Below are positions 55,114 through 61,769 of a stretch of 64,000 nucleotides of DNA, piece after piece. This DNA is from Treponemataceae bacterium (GTDB taxonomy: Bacteria > Spirochaetota > Spirochaetia > Treponematales > Rectinemataceae). A program made the position numbers and the translations under genes. The DNA is taken from the NCBI GenBank assembly GCA_963678065.2, contig CAXXVZ010000002.1:576001-640000 (forward strand), read 5' to 3'. How positions within the stretch are numbered: the stretch's first letter is position 1; each line of letters begins with the position of its first letter. The notes below the pieces were generated by a model. The model was not told the DNA's origin. It made no database searches and saw only the letters and a list, made by a program, of their open reading frames with translations.

Positions 55114-55254
55114 GTGCACACTCCCCGCCGCTCTCTGTGGAGAGTGGCGGGTCTCGAATGTCCCGCACAATATTATTGCAGGATCAACCATGCGCCTTGA
55201 TTTCAATGATCCGTGCGATTGTCAGTCATTCCCTGCTATTCTTTTTCGACTAGA
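54737..55254. repeat. 518-bp near-identical direct repeat, copy 2 (partner 39743-40260)
   Basis: Same sequence as copy 1 apart from three substitutions seen by eye. Confidence 0.95.
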
Positions 55255-56075
55255 TAAAATGTTACGTTATCACCATTCCAGACATCGCCCGGGGGCAATA
55301 CATTTTCAAAGTGGCTTATTTTATGAAAGTCGGCTTCACGCAGGATTGGCTCCAAATCTCCATACTCATAATATGTGCTCCAGAATAAATAACTGTCCAC
55401 AGTATCCTTCTGGTCAATCACAATATGCTGATTTACCAGCACCTTGTTCTCCGGGAAATGGTATCCATCATTCAAGACAATGTATGGTTCGTTCTTCCAG
55501 AATCCTTTCGTACTGACTTCCCATGATTGCTTTAGTATTTTTTCAGCAATGTTCTTGCTGTTTATTACATCGAATACAAAAACACCACCTCTTTTCAAGG
55601 ATGCGTATACATTATTTAATAGTATTTTTCTCTCATCCGGTTTGAGCACACAAAAATCCAGATAGATCAGTATTACCAAATCAAACTTGTTTTTGTACTC
55701 CAATTTCAGGTAGTCATCACAGAAATATTCAACGCCAGACTGATTCTTGGCAGCAATGCTTTTCGCATAACCTATGGATGTTTTTGAAAAATCGATCCCT
55801 GTTACATGATGACCGAGTTTGGCAAACTTTTCAGCATATAAACCGGGACCGCATCCTAAATCGAGTATATTCATTCCCCTGTTTTTCATTCTTGATAGTA
55901 TCCAGTTAACCAGCAATTCAATTTTTTCATCACTCCTGCTGGCCATATCATTGGATGAATCAATATGACAATTCAGCAACTGTTGCGAAATGTAGGGATC
56001 GGTCCACATCACTGATGTTCCATTCTCGTACAATGAAGGTTTCTTCGTATATTCAATAAGTCTCTCGATGTTCAT
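55236..56075 (-). CDS. Class I SAM-dependent methyltransferase (AT-rich gene)
   Basis: 'ILDLGCGPG', 'GIDFS', 'LKRGGVFVFDV'; AGGAG RBS. Confidence 0.92.
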   Translation of the reverse strand: MNIERLIEYTKKPSLYENGTSVMWTDPYISQQLLNCHIDSSNDMASRSDEKIELLVNWILSRMKNRGMNILDLGCGPGLYAEKFAKLGHHVTGIDFSKTSIGYAKSIAAKNQSGVEYFCDDYLKLEYKNKFDLVILIYLDFCVLKPDERKILLNNVYASLKRGGVFVFDVINSKNIAEKILKQSWEVSTKGFWKNEPYIVLNDGYHFPENKVLVNQHIVIDQKDTVDSYLFWSTYYEYGDLEPILREADFHKISHFENVLPPGDVWNGDNVTFYLVEKE

Positions 56076-56258
56076 ATAGACTCCTAAAGATGATTATGCC
56101 GGAGTTTTCATTTTACGGATCAGTATACTCCCCACGCCCCTGCCCTGTCAAAACAGTCATCCCCAAGCATCCCGCTCATTTCCCTGTCAACCTATTCCAT
56201 CGAAGCCCCCGTCTGTTCCATGACAGCGTGCGTCTCCGGCATGCTGAGAAAAAAGATG

Positions 56259-56287
56259 TTGACAGCCCACCAAGTATGGCCTATATT
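56259..56287 (+). promoter_or_regulatory. Sigma-70 promoter upstream of the structured leader
   Basis: TTGACA-N17-TATATT. Confidence 0.75.
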
Positions 56288-56297
56288 TTTCTTAATA

Positions 56298-56437
56298 CAG
56301 GGAATATCAGGCAAGCGCCCCATGGCGGTTGACCGATATCCTCCGGGCTGAAACCCCTTCGTTGGAGGGGTGATAAGCAGCGGGTGGGAAACCCGCGGGA
56401 TTCATACTCTAATCAGTATCCTTCCTGCGGTTTTTTT
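56298..56437 (+). ncRNA. Candidate riboswitch/attenuator leader; first domain resembles the DUF1646 (Na+-I) motif
   Basis: Stem ATATC/GATAT encloses AGGCAAG-[CGCC-CCAT-GGCG]-GTTGACC; second hairpin ACCCCTTC/GGAGGGGT; antiterminator GCGGGT/ACCCGC overlaps the terminator. Motif identity is from memory only. Confidence 0.6.
56393..56437 (+). terminator. Intrinsic terminator within the leader
   Basis: CCGCGGGA...TCCTGCGG stem with inner ATACT/AGTAT, followed by T7. Confidence 0.78.
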
Positions 56438-56524
56438 ATGCCCAAAACAGTGCGGCGTATCCCTTATGGATGCGCACGCTCTTTAGTCAGCAAAAAAACA
56501 CGGAACGGATGCGAAGAGGCTCGC

Positions 56525-57829
56525 ATGCCGGTGCCGGAAAACGCAATCGCCGTAAAACACATTTCAGCCACGAACCTCCTCACGCTCGCCTTCCTCAACA
56601 TGAGGCGGCACGGCCTCCGCGCCGTGGTGAATATCGTCGGAATCACCATTGCGGTGGCGGCTCTGGTCTTCTTCCTTTCTTTTTACCGAGGCACCTATGA
56701 AGGGGTCATGTTCTCTTCAGTAATCGACTATGCCACCTCCCATGGCCAATTCATGAGCTCAACCTTTGACGACGACGATCCTGAAGTCTGGCTTGACAGT
56801 GCAAATCTCTTTGACGGGGAATTGGCCCGAAGCGGGGATCTGGTGCGAAGGGCCGGATCCTCCAGGGGGACGTGGTCACCCCTTATCGCGCCGCGCCTGA
56901 TGAGCCCTGCCTTTGCCGGGGATGGTTCGCGCAAGGCCCCGATAATTCTTGCGGGCCTCGATTTCCAGAGGGAGAAAGAAATTCTGTCCATCGACGAACG
57001 GATGACGGCCGGGGTATACGGGGGAGAGGGTGTCGTTATCGGAAAAAAGCTGGCGGAGATTCTGTCCCTTGAGGTGGGGGATGAAATCCGTATCCAGGCA
57101 AGCACCGCCGATGGAGCGCCGAATCTGGATTACTGGAAGATATCGGGCATCTATTCCTCCGGATATCCCCCGATAGACCGGGGAATGGCGATGATGGATC
57201 TGGTCCAGGCGCAGAACTTCCTCGGTGCCGACGGGAAGATCAACAAGCTGTATTGCCGCCTCGCCGAAGGCTCCGATTCGGTCGCGCGGGAACGGGGGCT
57301 TTCAGCCATCGATGCAGACAGGGACAGGCTTTCCGGTCTCGGACTGGTATTCCGCAGTTGGCAGAATTACGCAAAACCCATCGTCGAGGATGCGAAAAAG
57401 GACAGCGGGTTTTTCGCCATCTTCATCGGCATACTTCTCTTCCTTTCCCTGTCGACAATGGCCGGCACAATGCGGGTGACCATCTTTGAACGCAAACGGG
57501 AAATCGGCATGCTCCGGGCCTCCGGCTGGATGCAGAGCGAGATTGCCGAGCTTTTTCTTTTTGAAGCCTTGGTAATCGGCATAGCGGGAAGTCTTGCCGG
57601 ATGCCTGGTCGGGGGACTGGCTTCCCTGGCCCTTGAACTGAATCCAGTAACCGTCGGGATGTCGATGGCCAACCTCGATATTCCCAGTTTCGCCTTGACC
57701 TGCAATGTGCAGCCCACTGATTTCATCTGGTCCCTGCTCGTCGGTTTCCTCACGGCCCTCGTGGCCGGAATTGTGCCCGCGTTGCGCGGTGCGCGTATGC
57801 CCATTCTCTCCGCCATAGCCGAGCGCTAG
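56525..57829 (+). CDS. ABC transporter permease, FtsX/LolE-like
   Basis: 'LAFLNMRRHGLRA', large periplasmic loop, 'ERKREIGMLRASG', C-terminal TMs. Confidence 0.9.
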   Translation: MPVPENAIAVKHISATNLLTLAFLNMRRHGLRAVVNIVGITIAVAALVFFLSFYRGTYEGVMFSSVIDYATSHGQFMSSTFDDDDPEVWLDSANLFDGELARSGDLVRRAGSSRGTWSPLIAPRLMSPAFAGDGSRKAPIILAGLDFQREKEILSIDERMTAGVYGGEGVVIGKKLAEILSLEVGDEIRIQASTADGAPNLDYWKISGIYSSGYPPIDRGMAMMDLVQAQNFLGADGKINKLYCRLAEGSDSVARERGLSAIDADRDRLSGLGLVFRSWQNYAKPIVEDAKKDSGFFAIFIGILLFLSLSTMAGTMRVTIFERKREIGMLRASGWMQSEIAELFLFEALVIGIAGSLAGCLVGGLASLALELNPVTVGMSMANLDIPSFALTCNVQPTDFIWSLLVGFLTALVAGIVPALRGARMPILSAIAER

Positions 57830-57845
57830 GCACAAGGAGCAAATC

Positions 57846-58577
57846 ATGAAAAGCGCCTATGTACGTTCGCTCATCATCAGTTTTTTTCTTTCTGGTTTGA
57901 TTTCCCAATCACTCCTTGCACAGGAGAAAGACGGAAATGGGATCGTGGCCGAGATGGACAGACACATGAACTTTACCGAATGCCGGATGATCATCCGGAT
58001 AGAAGATGCCAAGGCTGGCGGAAAGAACCGCATGCTCAAGGCGCGGGTAGAATACCTCAAGGATGTCGGTACCCGCATGGAATTCATGGAACCGGCGCGG
58101 GATCTCGGGAAGTGTGTATTGATGTCCGGTTCTTCCATGTGGATGTCATCCCCCTCGGTTTCCAAGCCCGTGCGGCTGTCCGGGAAGGATGCCTTTATGG
58201 GAACCTCCTTCACCAATGACGATGTGATGAATCTGGACAAGTCCGATGACTACGATTCGGTGATTGCCGCCAGTGATGGAAATGGCTGGGACATTGTGAT
58301 GAAAGCCAAGACCGGCGGGCTTCCCTATTCAAAGATCGAGGCCAGGATCGGCAGGGATTATCTGCCGGTAAGTATGGTGTATTTCGCCCGCTCGGGAAAA
58401 GAATCGAAACGGGTCAGTTTTTCCGCCGTGAAGGATTTTGGCGGAAAGCTGAAACCCTCGATCATGACCATTATTGACTTGATGAAACCGGGTGATACAA
58501 GCGCTGTTATTTTCGAAGAAATCCGTGAAGAAACGGTGAGCCGATCCAGACTTACCCCCGCATCGCTGGGGAACTGA
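57846..58577 (+). CDS. Outer-membrane lipoprotein-sorting protein (LolA-like, TP0789-type)
   Basis: Signal peptide; 'FMEPARDLG', 'FMGTSFTNDD'. Confidence 0.82.
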   Translation: MKSAYVRSLIISFFLSGLISQSLLAQEKDGNGIVAEMDRHMNFTECRMIIRIEDAKAGGKNRMLKARVEYLKDVGTRMEFMEPARDLGKCVLMSGSSMWMSSPSVSKPVRLSGKDAFMGTSFTNDDVMNLDKSDDYDSVIAASDGNGWDIVMKAKTGGLPYSKIEARIGRDYLPVSMVYFARSGKESKRVSFSAVKDFGGKLKPSIMTIIDLMKPGDTSAVIFEEIREETVSRSRLTPASLGN

Positions 58578-58585
58578 GGTAGACC

Positions 58586-59284
58586 ATGAGCAAGATAGAG
58601 ATATGCAATCTGACCAAGACCTACCGGCTCGGACACACAAGTGTCGAAGCCCTGCGGGGAATAAACCTCTCAGTCGACAGCCCGGAGATCATCGGCATCG
58701 TCGGGCCCTCCGGCTCTGGAAAGAGTACCCTGCTCAATATTCTTGGGGGAATAGATCTGGCGACAGGGGGCACTGTATCCATAAACGATGTCGAACTCGG
58801 CGCCCTTGATGACCGGGCCCGAACTGCTCTGCGCCGGCGCGAGATCGGTTTTATCTTTCAGTCTTTCAACCTTATTCCGGTCCTGACCGCACTCGAAAAC
58901 GTCGAGCTGCCCCTGATGGCCTTGGGGGTCCCCAAAAAGGAACGGAGAACGAGGGCGCTGGCCCTGCTGGAACGAGTCGGTCTTGAGAAGGAGGCTGCAC
59001 AGCGCCCTGATGAACTTTCCGGCGGGCAGCGCCAGCGGGTAGCGATTGCCCGGGCCCTGATCATCAACCCGCGCCTGGTCCTGGCCGATGAACCCACTGC
59101 CAATCTGGACGGAGAGAGCGGCCGGAATGTGCTGGAACTGATGCATGAGATGAACCACGAAATGAAAACGACCTTCCTGCTTTCCACCCACGATCCGCGG
59201 GTGCTGCCGTATCTTGACCGGCGGATGTATCTGGAGGATGGGCGCATTACCCGCACCGAGGCCATGGAAGGGCACATCGTATGA
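58586..59284 (+). CDS. ABC transporter ATPase, LolD/MacB-like
   Basis: 'GPSGSGKST', 'FIFQSFNL', 'LSGGQRQR', 'DEPTANLD'. Confidence 0.94.
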   Translation: MSKIEICNLTKTYRLGHTSVEALRGINLSVDSPEIIGIVGPSGSGKSTLLNILGGIDLATGGTVSINDVELGALDDRARTALRRREIGFIFQSFNLIPVLTALENVELPLMALGVPKKERRTRALALLERVGLEKEAAQRPDELSGGQRQRVAIARALIINPRLVLADEPTANLDGESGRNVLELMHEMNHEMKTTFLLSTHDPRVLPYLDRRMYLEDGRITRTEAMEGHIV

Positions 59285-60447
59285 TGAACGTAGCGCGCAC
59301 AAAACTGTTTCTCCTCCTGTGTCTCTTGTCGCAGGCCTTTACTGCCGCTGTCTTCGCCGAGGAAGATGAAACCCTTTTTCGGTTTTCCGGTTCGGTTCTG
59401 AATCAGACAGGATATATCGGCCTCCGTGGCGATATACCTGACGCTGCCGCCAGCGACTGGTATTCCCTTACCTCCGCGCGGGTGAGTTTCGGAAAAAACA
59501 GTGGACAGGGGCGCTTTCGCGCCGAGCTGTGGACGAGCTATGACAGCGTCATGGGCCGATGGGATCTTTCCCTGGACGAAGCCTGGGGCGAGTGGCGCCC
59601 CGGGCCCTTCCTTGCGGCGCGTCTGGGGCGCTCGCGGTTGCAGTTTGGTCCCTGTATAGCATTCAATCCGGCCAACTCTTTTGTCACTCGCAACATTTTT
59701 GACTCGCGTTCCAATAAAGCCGGGCAGGACGGTCTCTCGCTGGAAATCCTTCCCCTGCTGGTCGCGGGGGAACAGGATCTACCCGTTTCCCTTGTCATGA
59801 ATGCATCATTTATTCTGCCCGGAGATTCGCTGGAGCAGGGTGCTTCCGCGGGGCCGTACGATATTGAAGAATCAAGCGCGCTGGGGCGGATCACGGCCTA
59901 TCTACCCGGCACCGGTGTTCTAGGCCCGACCGAACTCGGGCTTTCCGGCGATCTCCGCCGCCTGGGTGTTACCGGAGTAAGGGGGTATCCTCCCTTTGCT
60001 GCGGGGGCCTGGCTCAGTGCCGATATAGCGGGCTTTGTATTTGGGACTGAAGGGGCAATCAGAAGTTCCGGGTACAGATCGGCCTCCGTGGCAGGCGCGG
60101 CAGTCACAGCCCAGGCCGATGGCAATCCCGAATATGAGTTCGCCTTCAGCCTGAACCGGAAAATAGGCAACTTTTGGGCGATTCTGGAAAGCGACTACAA
60201 CAGTTCAAAGGACAAATGGCTGGGGTTTGCCCAGCTCTCCCGAACCATCGAGGATATGAATCTTTCGGCGTCCGGCCTTATGGATTTCGACACCTTAGCG
60301 GCCCGCACGGCCATTGAAGCGGCATGGGACCTCACCGACTTTCTGGTACTGCGTATGCAGCTGTCCTGGAATTATCTGCCTGAAAAATGGGATGAAGACC
60401 TTCCCTCAGTCTATGCAGCCGGACTCGCGCTCGAGTGCTTCTTTTAA
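59281..60447 (+). CDS. Secreted hypothetical protein, probable outer-membrane beta-barrel
   Basis: Signal peptide, alternating amphipathic segments, 'LGRSRLQFG...FNPAN', terminal Phe. Confidence 0.65.
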   Translation: MMNVARTKLFLLLCLLSQAFTAAVFAEEDETLFRFSGSVLNQTGYIGLRGDIPDAAASDWYSLTSARVSFGKNSGQGRFRAELWTSYDSVMGRWDLSLDEAWGEWRPGPFLAARLGRSRLQFGPCIAFNPANSFVTRNIFDSRSNKAGQDGLSLEILPLLVAGEQDLPVSLVMNASFILPGDSLEQGASAGPYDIEESSALGRITAYLPGTGVLGPTELGLSGDLRRLGVTGVRGYPPFAAGAWLSADIAGFVFGTEGAIRSSGYRSASVAGAAVTAQADGNPEYEFAFSLNRKIGNFWAILESDYNSSKDKWLGFAQLSRTIEDMNLSASGLMDFDTLAARTAIEAAWDLTDFLVLRMQLSWNYLPEKWDEDLPSVYAAGLALECFF

Positions 60448-60458
60448 AGGACGATAGC

Positions 60459-61769
60459 ATGGAATCGCTTAAGTTTATTTTTTACCTGGCCTGGCGGAAT
60501 GTCATCCGGTACCGGAAACGGACCCTCCAGTCCTTTCTGATCCTCTTTTGCGGGGCGTTCTGTATAATGGTGGTCGATGCCTATATGAAAGGATATGCGG
60601 CGTCATCCAGCGAACGCATCGTAAGCCAGTGCGGCCATATCGATGCCCATGCATCGGGCTATCTGGATTCAGCGGAGGCCATGCCCCTGGACCTCGCCAT
60701 TGTCGATGCGGACTCCGTGATGGAAAAGATGCTGACTTCCGCCAGTGCCAAAACCTCACCTGGAGTGCGGCCCATTTTGGCTCCGTCGATTGAGACCGGC
60801 TGCATGCTTTCCAACGGTGAACTTTCCCGGTCGGCAAACGTCTATATCACGGAAGCCTTTGCCCGCTCCCTTCCGGGGGAAAAGATCCAGGTCAATCCGC
60901 TGCTCGCCGATGCCCAGTCCGCCATTGTCTCCGGACATTTCTACAGGAACGCTTCGGAACGGGGGGTTCTCCTGGATGAAAAGTACGCCCGCAAACTTGG
61001 GCTTTCAGAAGGTGATTCCCTCATCCTGCTCGGAAATGATTCTTTCGGCTCCTTCTCCATGCTGGAGATCGAAATCATCGGCATAGTCCGCGAGGCCTTC
61101 CTCCCCGGAGAAGCCGGCTGTGTGGTGGATCCGGTCAGTTTTGCCCCTGCCTTCGGATTGGAAGGAATGGCCACCGCAATCTCCCTGTGGTTTGTTTCCG
61201 GAGACAATGCACACATGGCGGAAAGCGGGGCCGAACCCCTCGCCGTTGCAGAAGTCATGACGGCGCTGGAAGCCGATACGGGACTGAAGCTTCGCCCCTT
61301 CTCGGTCATCTCCGCAAGTTATGCGGCTATGTTTGAATTCCTGGATATCTTTCTGGCGGGGATGATGGCGGTCTTTGCCCTGGTCGCCGGTGTCGGTATG
61401 ACCAACGCCATTCTCCTTTCGGTACAGGACCGCGTAAAGGATCTCGGGACACTCAGAGCCATTACCCTCTCATCGCGGCAGGCAGGCCTGTTGATATATG
61501 CTGAAACCTTCATTACCGGGCTTGCCGCCGCTCTCAGCGCGCTCTGCCTGGGAAGCCTGACTATCTGGATAATGGACGTTACTGGTTTTGGCATCACGTT
61601 CGAGCTTTCGGACATGGCTTCAGCCCTTCCCGATTCAATCAGGCCCAGCCTCTTCCCCCTGCGTCTGTTGGTCATTGCTGGCGTGAGCGCGGTTTTCCCG
61701 ATCGTGGCGGCAATCTTGCCGGCCCGCACCGCGCAGAAACTGACAATCCGGGAGTGCTTCAGTTCCTGA
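60459..61769 (+). CDS. ABC transporter permease, FtsX/LolC-like (second copy)
   Basis: 'LAWRNVIRYRKRT', 'DRVKDLGTLRA', C-terminal TMs. Confidence 0.88.
   Translation: MESLKFIFYLAWRNVIRYRKRTLQSFLILFCGAFCIMVVDAYMKGYAASSSERIVSQCGHIDAHASGYLDSAEAMPLDLAIVDADSVMEKMLTSASAKTSPGVRPILAPSIETGCMLSNGELSRSANVYITEAFARSLPGEKIQVNPLLADAQSAIVSGHFYRNASERGVLLDEKYARKLGLSEGDSLILLGNDSFGSFSMLEIEIIGIVREAFLPGEAGCVVDPVSFAPAFGLEGMATAISLWFVSGDNAHMAESGAEPLAVAEVMTALEADTGLKLRPFSVISASYAAMFEFLDIFLAGMMAVFALVAGVGMTNAILLSVQDRVKDLGTLRAITLSSRQAGLLIYAETFITGLAAALSALCLGSLTIWIMDVTGFGITFELSDMASALPDSIRPSLFPLRLLVIAGVSAVFPIVAAILPARTAQKLTIRECFSS

Follow-up and report, generated by a model that had tools for sequence, protein, structure and literature searches.

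The NiCo (czcD) riboswitches (Rfam RF02683) are, according to reviews, enriched among obligate anaerobes; besides Co2+ and Ni2+ they also sense Fe2+, with their selectivity unsettled (PMC11672702, PMC9389577). In structure 4RUM the metal-binding nucleotides are A9, G40, G41, G42, G82 and G83, with A9 and G40 making up a third metal site; the helices end at the junction in the pairs C11-G83 (P1), a sheared A12.G40 (P2), G42-C55 (P3) and A56.G81 (P4); the strand that switches forms part of P4 and P1, and P1 lies beside P3 in the folded junction (bioRxiv 10.1101/2025.08.02.668262). Here we compare with these RNAs a leader at positions 56298-56437 of a 64,000-nt stretch of DNA from a Treponemataceae bacterium (GCA_963678065.2, contig CAXXVZ010000002.1, 576,001-640,000 of the forward strand; hereafter the window, whose positions are used throughout). 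An initial annotation, made from the sequence alone, had flagged 56259-56524 as a candidate tandem of a Na+-I-like aptamer and a possibly undescribed one that would switch transcription off. We find that the leader is a real, conserved and lineage-restricted variant of NiCo/czcD, that it most likely acts, when induced by metal, as an antiterminator for an uncharacterised envelope exporter, and that it is not a tandem, not a Na+-I aptamer and not an OFF switch. Specifically, we assign a probability of roughly 0.6 to the reading that the leader is a single three-helix RNA with a NiCo/czcD junction, acting as a metal-dependent (likely Fe2+, Co2+ or Ni2+) antiterminator, i.e., an ON switch, of a five-gene MacB/LolCDE-like export operon. 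Neither this variant nor any NiCo switch ahead of a Lol-like operon was found described in the literature searched, which comprised papers available without a subscription.

The comparison uses a family of 19 distinct leader sequences, taken from genomes and metagenomes of three related GTDB families of one order and fitted to a covariance model (alignment A5). The promoter, both domains, the hairpin and the terminator of the initial annotation are all present where it had placed them, and together they resolve into the following features, some of which are seen in the minimum free energy (MFE) structure.

56259-56287, + strand: sigma-70-type promoter TTGACA-N17-TATATT (-35 box 56259-56264, -10 box 56282-56287), 11 of 12 matches in a promoter scan
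56298-56299, + strand: junction C and A, equivalents of NiCo C11 and A12; CA in 19/19 sequences by direct parse
56300-56344, + strand: P2, formerly domain 1, a long hairpin with internal loops (ATATC/GATAT stem and CGCC-CCAT-GGCG hairpin)
56345-56379, + strand: J2/3 GG (56345-56346), extended P3 (formerly domain 2) and J3/4 A56379
56347-56349 with 56376-56378, + strand: P3 stem GCU/AGC, with covariation on A5
56350-56352 and 56372-56375, + strand: P3 internal loop GAA/GAUA, of which GAA is invariant
56353-56371, + strand: P3b, an 8-bp hairpin inside the extended P3, with covariation
56380-56396, + strand: P4, the predicted antiterminator, GCGGGU-GGGAA-ACCCGC, with covariation; present in the MFE structure of the RNA cut at 56400
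56397-56400, + strand: J4/1 GGG and A, equivalents of NiCo G81-G83, inside the terminator 5' arm; invariant in 19/19
56393-56437, + strand: intrinsic terminator, in the full-length MFE structure (RNAfold)
56393-56400 and 56423-56430, + strand: terminator outer stem, 5' arm CCGCGGGA and 3' arm TCCTGCGG (DNA) or UCCUGCGG (RNA)
56404-56419, + strand: inner hairpin AUACU-CUAAUC-AGUAU of the terminator, beside a 3x3 internal loop; inner stem identical in 19/19
56431-56437, + strand: U7 tract (T7 in DNA)

Mapped via the Rfam consensus, the NiCo core corresponds to the C and A of CAGG, the GGG of CCGGGC, the CA of GCA and the GGG of GGGAC. C56298, A56299, GGG 56345-56347, C56378, A56379 and GGG 56397-56399 are invariant in all 19 sequences, and the GGG, GCA and GAA columns are without variation across the family. 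The two GGG triplets are the counterparts of the metal-ligand guanines G40-G42, G82 and G83, and of G81, while the counterparts of C11-G83, A12.G40 and A56.G81 are likewise present in 19/19, at the level of sequence only. The junction C-A-GG...CC-GGG-C...GC-A-(G/A)Y...-GGG-A is thus shared with NiCo/czcD, as are the order of P2, P3 and P4, a switching strand in P4 and J4/1 that overlaps the terminator, the predicted ON logic and the occurrence in anaerobes (RF02683, 4RUM; PMC9389577, PMC11672702, bioRxiv 10.1101/2025.08.02.668262). On the 3' side of P2 the family consensus runs through an invariant CCGGGC(U/C)GAA, the 8-bp covarying hairpin, GA(U/C)A-(A/G)GC-A and P4 of the form (G/A)YGGG...CCCRY; on the 3' side of P4 it continues with GGGA, three variable bases, an invariant AUACU-loop-AGUAU-CCUUCC, the terminator 3' arm and the U tract. 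A different register of the cmscan alignment, using the second CAGG (56308) and GAA/UUC as P1, was dropped: it leaves 8-12 unpaired bases in J2/3 and is impossible in six lineages with a short P2.

Standard annotation finds nothing here, and if our interpretation is correct the NiCo/czcD class extends to a form that such annotation has missed. The Rfam scan of the whole window at gathering cut-offs (4227 families; 37 bits for NiCo) returned 0 matches. In a permissive cmscan of 56200-56560, with E up to 10, NiCo RF02683 was the sole riboswitch family matched, at 56292-56405 and over model positions 1-96, its full length, with 15.5 bits and E = 0.93; the other matches (ncr1175, CRISPR-DR12, PK-BYV and SNORA38) were far under their cut-offs and biologically senseless. 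The best NiCo scores among the relatives are 28.5 bits (L008, E = 0.0076) and 27.8 bits (L041), and a canonical control that was found by the same DNA pattern and precedes a cation diffusion facilitator (CDF) gene (L051) reaches 38.8 bits. Elsewhere in the leader's own genome NiCo gave two weak matches of 19.5 and 15.7 bits, none over the cut-off and none at E ≤ 0.01. The catalogued variant NiCo-AnGGAG (RF03164, cut-off 64.5 bits), which belongs to the same Rfam clan as NiCo (CL00122), matched nothing at the variant loci in 5/5 carrier genomes with E up to 10, gave two weak matches of 14-15 bits elsewhere, and scored below NiCo in cmscan where both matched.

The leader is structured and recurs with its promoter in 19 distinct sequences, which bears out the initial annotation in taking it for a genuine riboswitch-like element. 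The MFE of 56290-56445 is -64.1 kcal/mol, compared with -48.9 +/- 3.9 kcal/mol in 200 shuffles (z = -3.9; RNAfold), 0/200 of which fold as well. Relatives were found along several routes. In five of 60 related genomes BLAST matched the leader over its 3' two-thirds; a search with the gene 1 protein led to five more loci in metagenome-assembled genomes titled Treponemataceae, all five with the leader; and a core DNA pattern occurs in 6/69 genomes of the window's GTDB family and in 16 metagenome stretches, which comprise 12 family members, 2 canonical NiCo switches (one of them the control above) and 2 chance matches in coding sequence. With a covariance model (R1), 9/151 genomes sampled from the order, in three families, gave strong matches of 81-113 bits, and at E ≤ 1e-4 the leader was absent from 150 other genomes sampled from the phylum.

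The check for covariation in related genomes that had been proposed for domain 2 came out in favour of a conserved structure, with P3, P3b and P4 all covarying. On A5, 93.3% of cells are paired and 10/27 pairs change on both sides, a count that does not represent independent events, given that the 19 sequences are kin from three related families, and A5 was itself fitted to the model; this is a first reservation about our interpretation, and others are gathered below. The covariation score is reached by 0/500 shuffles, controls with slid partners pair in only 30-44% of cells, and a MAFFT alignment agrees with A5. Specifically, 16 sequences have U-A and 3 have C-G as the innermost P3 pair, six of the eight P3b pairs change on both sides, and the closing pair of P4 is G-C in 11, A-U in 7 and G-U in 1. 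When the last P4 base changes from C to U, its P4 partner changes from G to A in 7/8 cases, and its terminator partner mostly stays G, leaving a G.U pair. Two earlier alignments had a restricted use: A1 misaligns P2, and its columns 60-167 alone were used, whereas A4 was contaminated by antisense and canonical matches and was replaced by A5.

These data can be set against the architecture that was first proposed, in which a Na+-I (DUF1646)-like aptamer is followed by an undescribed aptamer whose folding, through a CCG(56343-56345)/CGG(56381-56383) stem, frees the terminator. The stem does appear in the full-length MFE structure alongside the terminator, but it belongs to the terminator state only, after P4 has been displaced, and as its columns never vary they give this pairing no support over the NiCo one. 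The sequence of domain 2, GGGCT-GAA-[ACCCCTTC-GTT-GGAGGGGT]-GATA-AGC (56345-56378), aligns with the NiCo helix P3 and is a covarying extension of it rather than a separate new aptamer; the hairpin that follows aligns with P4, and the CC and GGG concerned are NiCo junction nucleotides. Domain 1 is no better placed as an aptamer, being a P2 of 20-52 nt whose sequence is unrelated between lineages and is conserved only in the GG/CC or GAG/CUC that always closes it at the junction (the P2 figures from A5 are approximate, since it misplaces the 5' end in 4/19 rows, L006, L066, L046 and L007, a weakness of our case as well). The Na+-I riboswitch is, like the variant, an ion-responsive leader ending in a terminator, but its model gave no match at any threshold tried, and of the three Rfam families named for checking, DUF1646, c-di-GMP-I and ydaO-yuaA, none appeared either in the gathering scan of the window or in the scan of 56200-56560 at E ≤ 10. 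P2, the extended P3 and P4 radiate from one junction, aligned over NiCo model positions 1-96, and form a single RNA switch; a tandem with OFF polarity is highly improbable.

The same leader also holds the terminator with which the aptamer competes. Its outer stem is 99.3% paired (18 sequences), and a simple terminator scan did not call it because its loop is 22 nt long and contains the inner hairpin. The 5' arm of the outer stem (56393-56400) consists of the last four bases of P4 and of GGGA, which includes the second GGG of the junction. Because of this shared strand aptamer and terminator are mutually exclusive, as the initial annotation had seen for the hairpin 56380-56396. When the RNA is cut at 56400 the MFE structure is exactly P2/P3/P3b/P4, at -48.5 kcal/mol, whereas for the full-length leader the aptamer fold has -50.0, the terminator fold -54.6 and the MFE structure -60.9 kcal/mol. 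Since the terminator fold outcompetes the aptamer fold in the full leader, termination would be the default. A bound aptamer would block terminator formation, and we therefore predict an ON switch: the hairpin that had been assigned to an OFF switch is P4, which competes with the terminator, so that ligand would favour read-through.

If canonical NiCo is a guide, P4 and J4/1 would be locked by metal ions that bridge the two GGG triplets, which would let RNA polymerase continue through the U7 tract at 56431-56437 and transcribe the operon. With no metal bound, P4 would be displaced by UCCUGCGG (56423-56430), ending transcription near 56437. The operon would thus be an envelope exporter induced by an excess of transition metal. 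More speculatively, the invariant hairpin 56404-56419 may stand in for a missing P1 and dock on the extended P3.

Two further observations concern the 3' end of the terminator. In the P4 loop the 3' half is A-rich, and together with the GGG of the P4 5' arm it is able to base-pair to the U tract and to a conserved CCC located 3-6 nt beyond it (56386-56443 and relatives), a pairing that lengthens the terminator helix in the full-length MFE structure. The same UUUUUUUAUNCCC tail is found 3' of canonical NiCo terminators of the same order.

The variant most likely descends from a local NiCo lineage, a view that is based on two features of the sequences. Canonical NiCo switches of the same order (L087-L090), which control CDF exporters, share with the variant the P4/terminator sequence GCGGGA...CCCGCGGGAC...CCCGCGGGUUUUUUU and its layout, and canonical NiCo is present in the same GTDB family, over the cut-off in 3/69 genomes and at E ≤ 0.01 in 16/69. 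These canonical relatives precede Cation_efflux (CDF) genes and in one case the N-terminus of a P-type ATPase (Cation_ATPase_N), whereas the variant precedes a five-gene MacB/Lol-like cassette. It also differs from them in structure: its P3 carries the conserved GAA/GAUA loop and the 8-bp hairpin, and its terminator loop holds a 22-nt insert with the invariant hairpin.

In the same GTDB family, four leaders of the genus g20 (L074, L075, L077 and L078) are NiCo-like at 26-28.5 bits, below the cut-off, and lie upstream of CDF exporter genes. They read CGG for GGG in J4/1 (…GCCUGCCGGACC…), with one conserved guanine changed.

The differences from canonical NiCo could be taken to mean that a fold descended from NiCo has altered its specificity, and that it now senses another ion or a small molecule matched to the substrate of the exporter, still switching ON by antitermination. 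Loss of P1, a variable A9 equivalent, the GAA/GAUA loop and the invariant 3' hairpin would all reshape the pocket. Canonical NiCo of this order lacks three features that are specific to the family and strictly conserved in it; the variant is tied exclusively to an export cassette of a non-metal type, with the canonical switches of the same bacterial family staying with CDF or P-type ATPase genes; and a variant-specific model tells the two groups cleanly apart, scoring variants at 88-148 bits and canonical NiCo at no more than 34. However, the five metal-ligand guanines and the positioning junction pairs are unchanged in 19/19 sequences, which is hard to explain without transition-metal binding, and the gene content yields no candidate for an alternative ligand. 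We consider a change of specificity unlikely.

Several observations weigh against a metal-responsive NiCo-type antiterminator, the reading that we nevertheless prefer. All family members score below the NiCo cut-off of 37 bits (15.5-28.5); of the 16/19 scanned with a limit of E ≤ 1 or 10, 13 did not reach it. The equivalent of A9, two nucleotides 5' of the junction C, is A in 5, U in 13 and G in 1 of the 19 sequences, with A at the neighbouring position in 17/19. The regulated genes are not known metal exporters, and the LolA-like protein encoded by the second of them is without an obvious metal site, having no histidine in 7/8 orthologs and no conserved histidine. The invariance of the hairpin 56404-56419 has no account in a NiCo-like model. 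Three metatranscriptome runs gave only one contig, of 249 nt and inside the permease gene (56918-57164), which is uninformative on transcript start, termination and level.

A further point concerns P1. From the promoter the transcript is likely to start at about 56294-56295, 3-4 nt before the junction C. Promoter-like sites are more frequent here than expected (3 in 55900-56800 against 0.9 from shuffles), and a box TTGAC(A/G/T)-N17-TAnnn(T/A) lies upstream of the leader in 18/18 distinct relatives compared, and by eye in one more (L080). Across the family the end of the -10 box and the junction C lie 7-10 nt apart, and for this reason the 5' strand of P1, given the predicted start, is absent in 18/19 sequences, the promoter leaving no room for it. 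By inspection of the 5' tails against the bases 3' of GGGA in the 19 sequences, consistent P1 pairing was not found except in L008, the sole sequence able to form P1 (AUGA/UCAU). If the transcript does start where the promoter predicts, the four-way NiCo junction would be incomplete. A metal-binding junction that works without the P1 helix would, if our reading is true, bear on the folding of this four-way junction and on the engineering of sensors.

The loss of P1 can also be combined with a new ligand. In this scheme a NiCo-derived aptamer was rebuilt without P1, with the transcript starting at the junction and the 3' hairpin docked on the extended P3 in the place of P1, and it would recognise something other than Fe, Co or Ni, namely a substrate or signal of the Lol-like trans-envelope exporter. 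Among known riboswitches it would then be the first to control an export machine of the lipoprotein or lipid type. We hold this more specific proposal to be somewhat less probable than a change of specificity in general.

The inner hairpin suggests a further alternative to metal-dependent antitermination. Its loop is variable, in length (4-7 nt) as well as in sequence, its stem shows no covariation, and AUACU...AGUAU-CCU(UCC) with the flank (56404-56422) is invariant in 19/19. A stem and 3' flank fixed in sequence in this way are what a sequence-specific binding site would look like, and the leader could be an attenuator on which a protein or a second RNA acts, or a constitutive element for processing or stability, with AUACU-loop-AGUAU-CCUUCC as the recognition site and the junction as an inherited, unused scaffold. 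A second conserved hairpin, which buries the start codon of gene 1 and is described below, hints at further layers of control. On the other hand the junction nucleotides are just as invariant as the inner hairpin, covariation in P4 preserves the antiterminator, the genome does not reuse the hairpin motif, and the conserved cassette has no gene for an RNA-binding regulator. An attenuator or processing element of this kind appears less probable again than either version of the changed ligand.

Two other roles for this region were rejected. Against a repeated genomic site or DNA operator, the genome contains a single further match to the inner hairpin, within a coding region, with about 2.5 expected by chance, and the variation of the loop between 4 and 7 nt argues against an operator with fixed spacing. 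CCUUCC as an anti-Shine-Dalgarno sequence could form only 4-6 pairs, which by eye are not kept across relatives.

Returning to metal-induced antitermination, the genes under its predicted control form the following operon.

56506-56531, + strand: hairpin CGG-AUGCGA-AGAGGC-UCGCAU-G-CCG, -12.4 kcal/mol, z = -2.5
56525-57829, + strand: gene 1, MacB/LolC-E-like type VII ABC permease (Pfam FtsX, MacB_PCD)
57846-58577, + strand: gene 2, LolA-like periplasmic protein (Pfam LolA_like, 1e-25), in 7/7 loci examined
58586-59284, + strand: gene 3, ABC ATPase of the LolD/MacB/DevA type (Pfam/NCBIfam), in 7/7 loci
59281-60447, + strand: gene 4, secreted protein of 388 aa with an N-terminal hydrophobic leader and a C-terminal FF
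60435-61769, + strand: gene 5, second FtsX-type permease (Pfam/NCBIfam), in 7/7 loci

The initial annotation was right in placing the leader ahead of a Lol-like export operon: an ortholog of the permease (50-70% identity) lies 100-140 nt downstream of it in 23/23 family loci and in none of the 4 pattern matches from outside the family, and all five genes are present in order in the 7/7 longer loci examined. Among the 69 genomes of the GTDB family the leader occurs in six and the permease (E ≤ 1e-40) in five, all of them among the leader's six; in the sixth the permease gene is cut by the contig end. Since all carriers of the permease have the leader, the cassette was never seen without the switch in those genomes.

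The exporter is Lol-like or MacB-like only, its scores lying under the LolCDE equivalog cut-offs (89.5 bits against 362 for NCBIfam lolCE and 240 against 308 for LolD). The gene 4 protein has no Pfam or NCBIfam match and is probably the outer-membrane beta-barrel of the cassette; the nearest clusters of a protein atlas, compared by language-model features, are porin-like (score 0.97), which we take as a lead only.

The same mix of a MacB-like permease, an ATPase, a LolA-like protein and an outer-membrane beta-barrel occurs in LolCDE-LolA and in the recently described BBJ23-29 cluster of Borrelia, likewise a spirochaete, whose substrate is unknown and probably non-polar (PMC13078400). In contrast to that cluster, the present cassette has two permease genes, and its barrel is porin-like and not of the Omp85 family; the abstract of PMC13078400 reports no riboswitch. 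If our reading holds, an excess of transition metal, probably Fe2+, would be a testable inducing signal in anaerobes for a cassette of MacB, LolA-like protein and outer-membrane barrel, and the leader would give a first clue to the purpose of an uncharacterised exporter in environmental spirochaetes, of the same kind as the unexplained Borrelia cluster.

Several MacB-type pumps handle iron-related molecules (haem, protoporphyrin and pyoverdine), and by analogy with these an iron-linked role for the exporter is plausible. The LolA-like protein has one conserved cysteine, in the motif F-x-E-C-R-M, and a high methionine content (10-16 Met in 218-243 aa, 8 orthologs). Neither the methionines nor the single cysteine is diagnostic, and they were set aside as a hint of a metal site.

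In the hairpin at 56506-56531 the loop contains the Shine-Dalgarno sequence, and the 3' arm contains the gene 1 start codon (56525-56527). The motif GGAUGCGAAG...CGCAUG is kept in all relatives looked at, with a stem of 5-7 bp, and the hairpin may be a second, translational layer of control. On the other side of the leader a second near-consensus promoter, TTGACA-N18-TATACT at 56122-56151 on the minus strand, faces an S-adenosylmethionine (SAM)-methyltransferase gene at 55236-56075.

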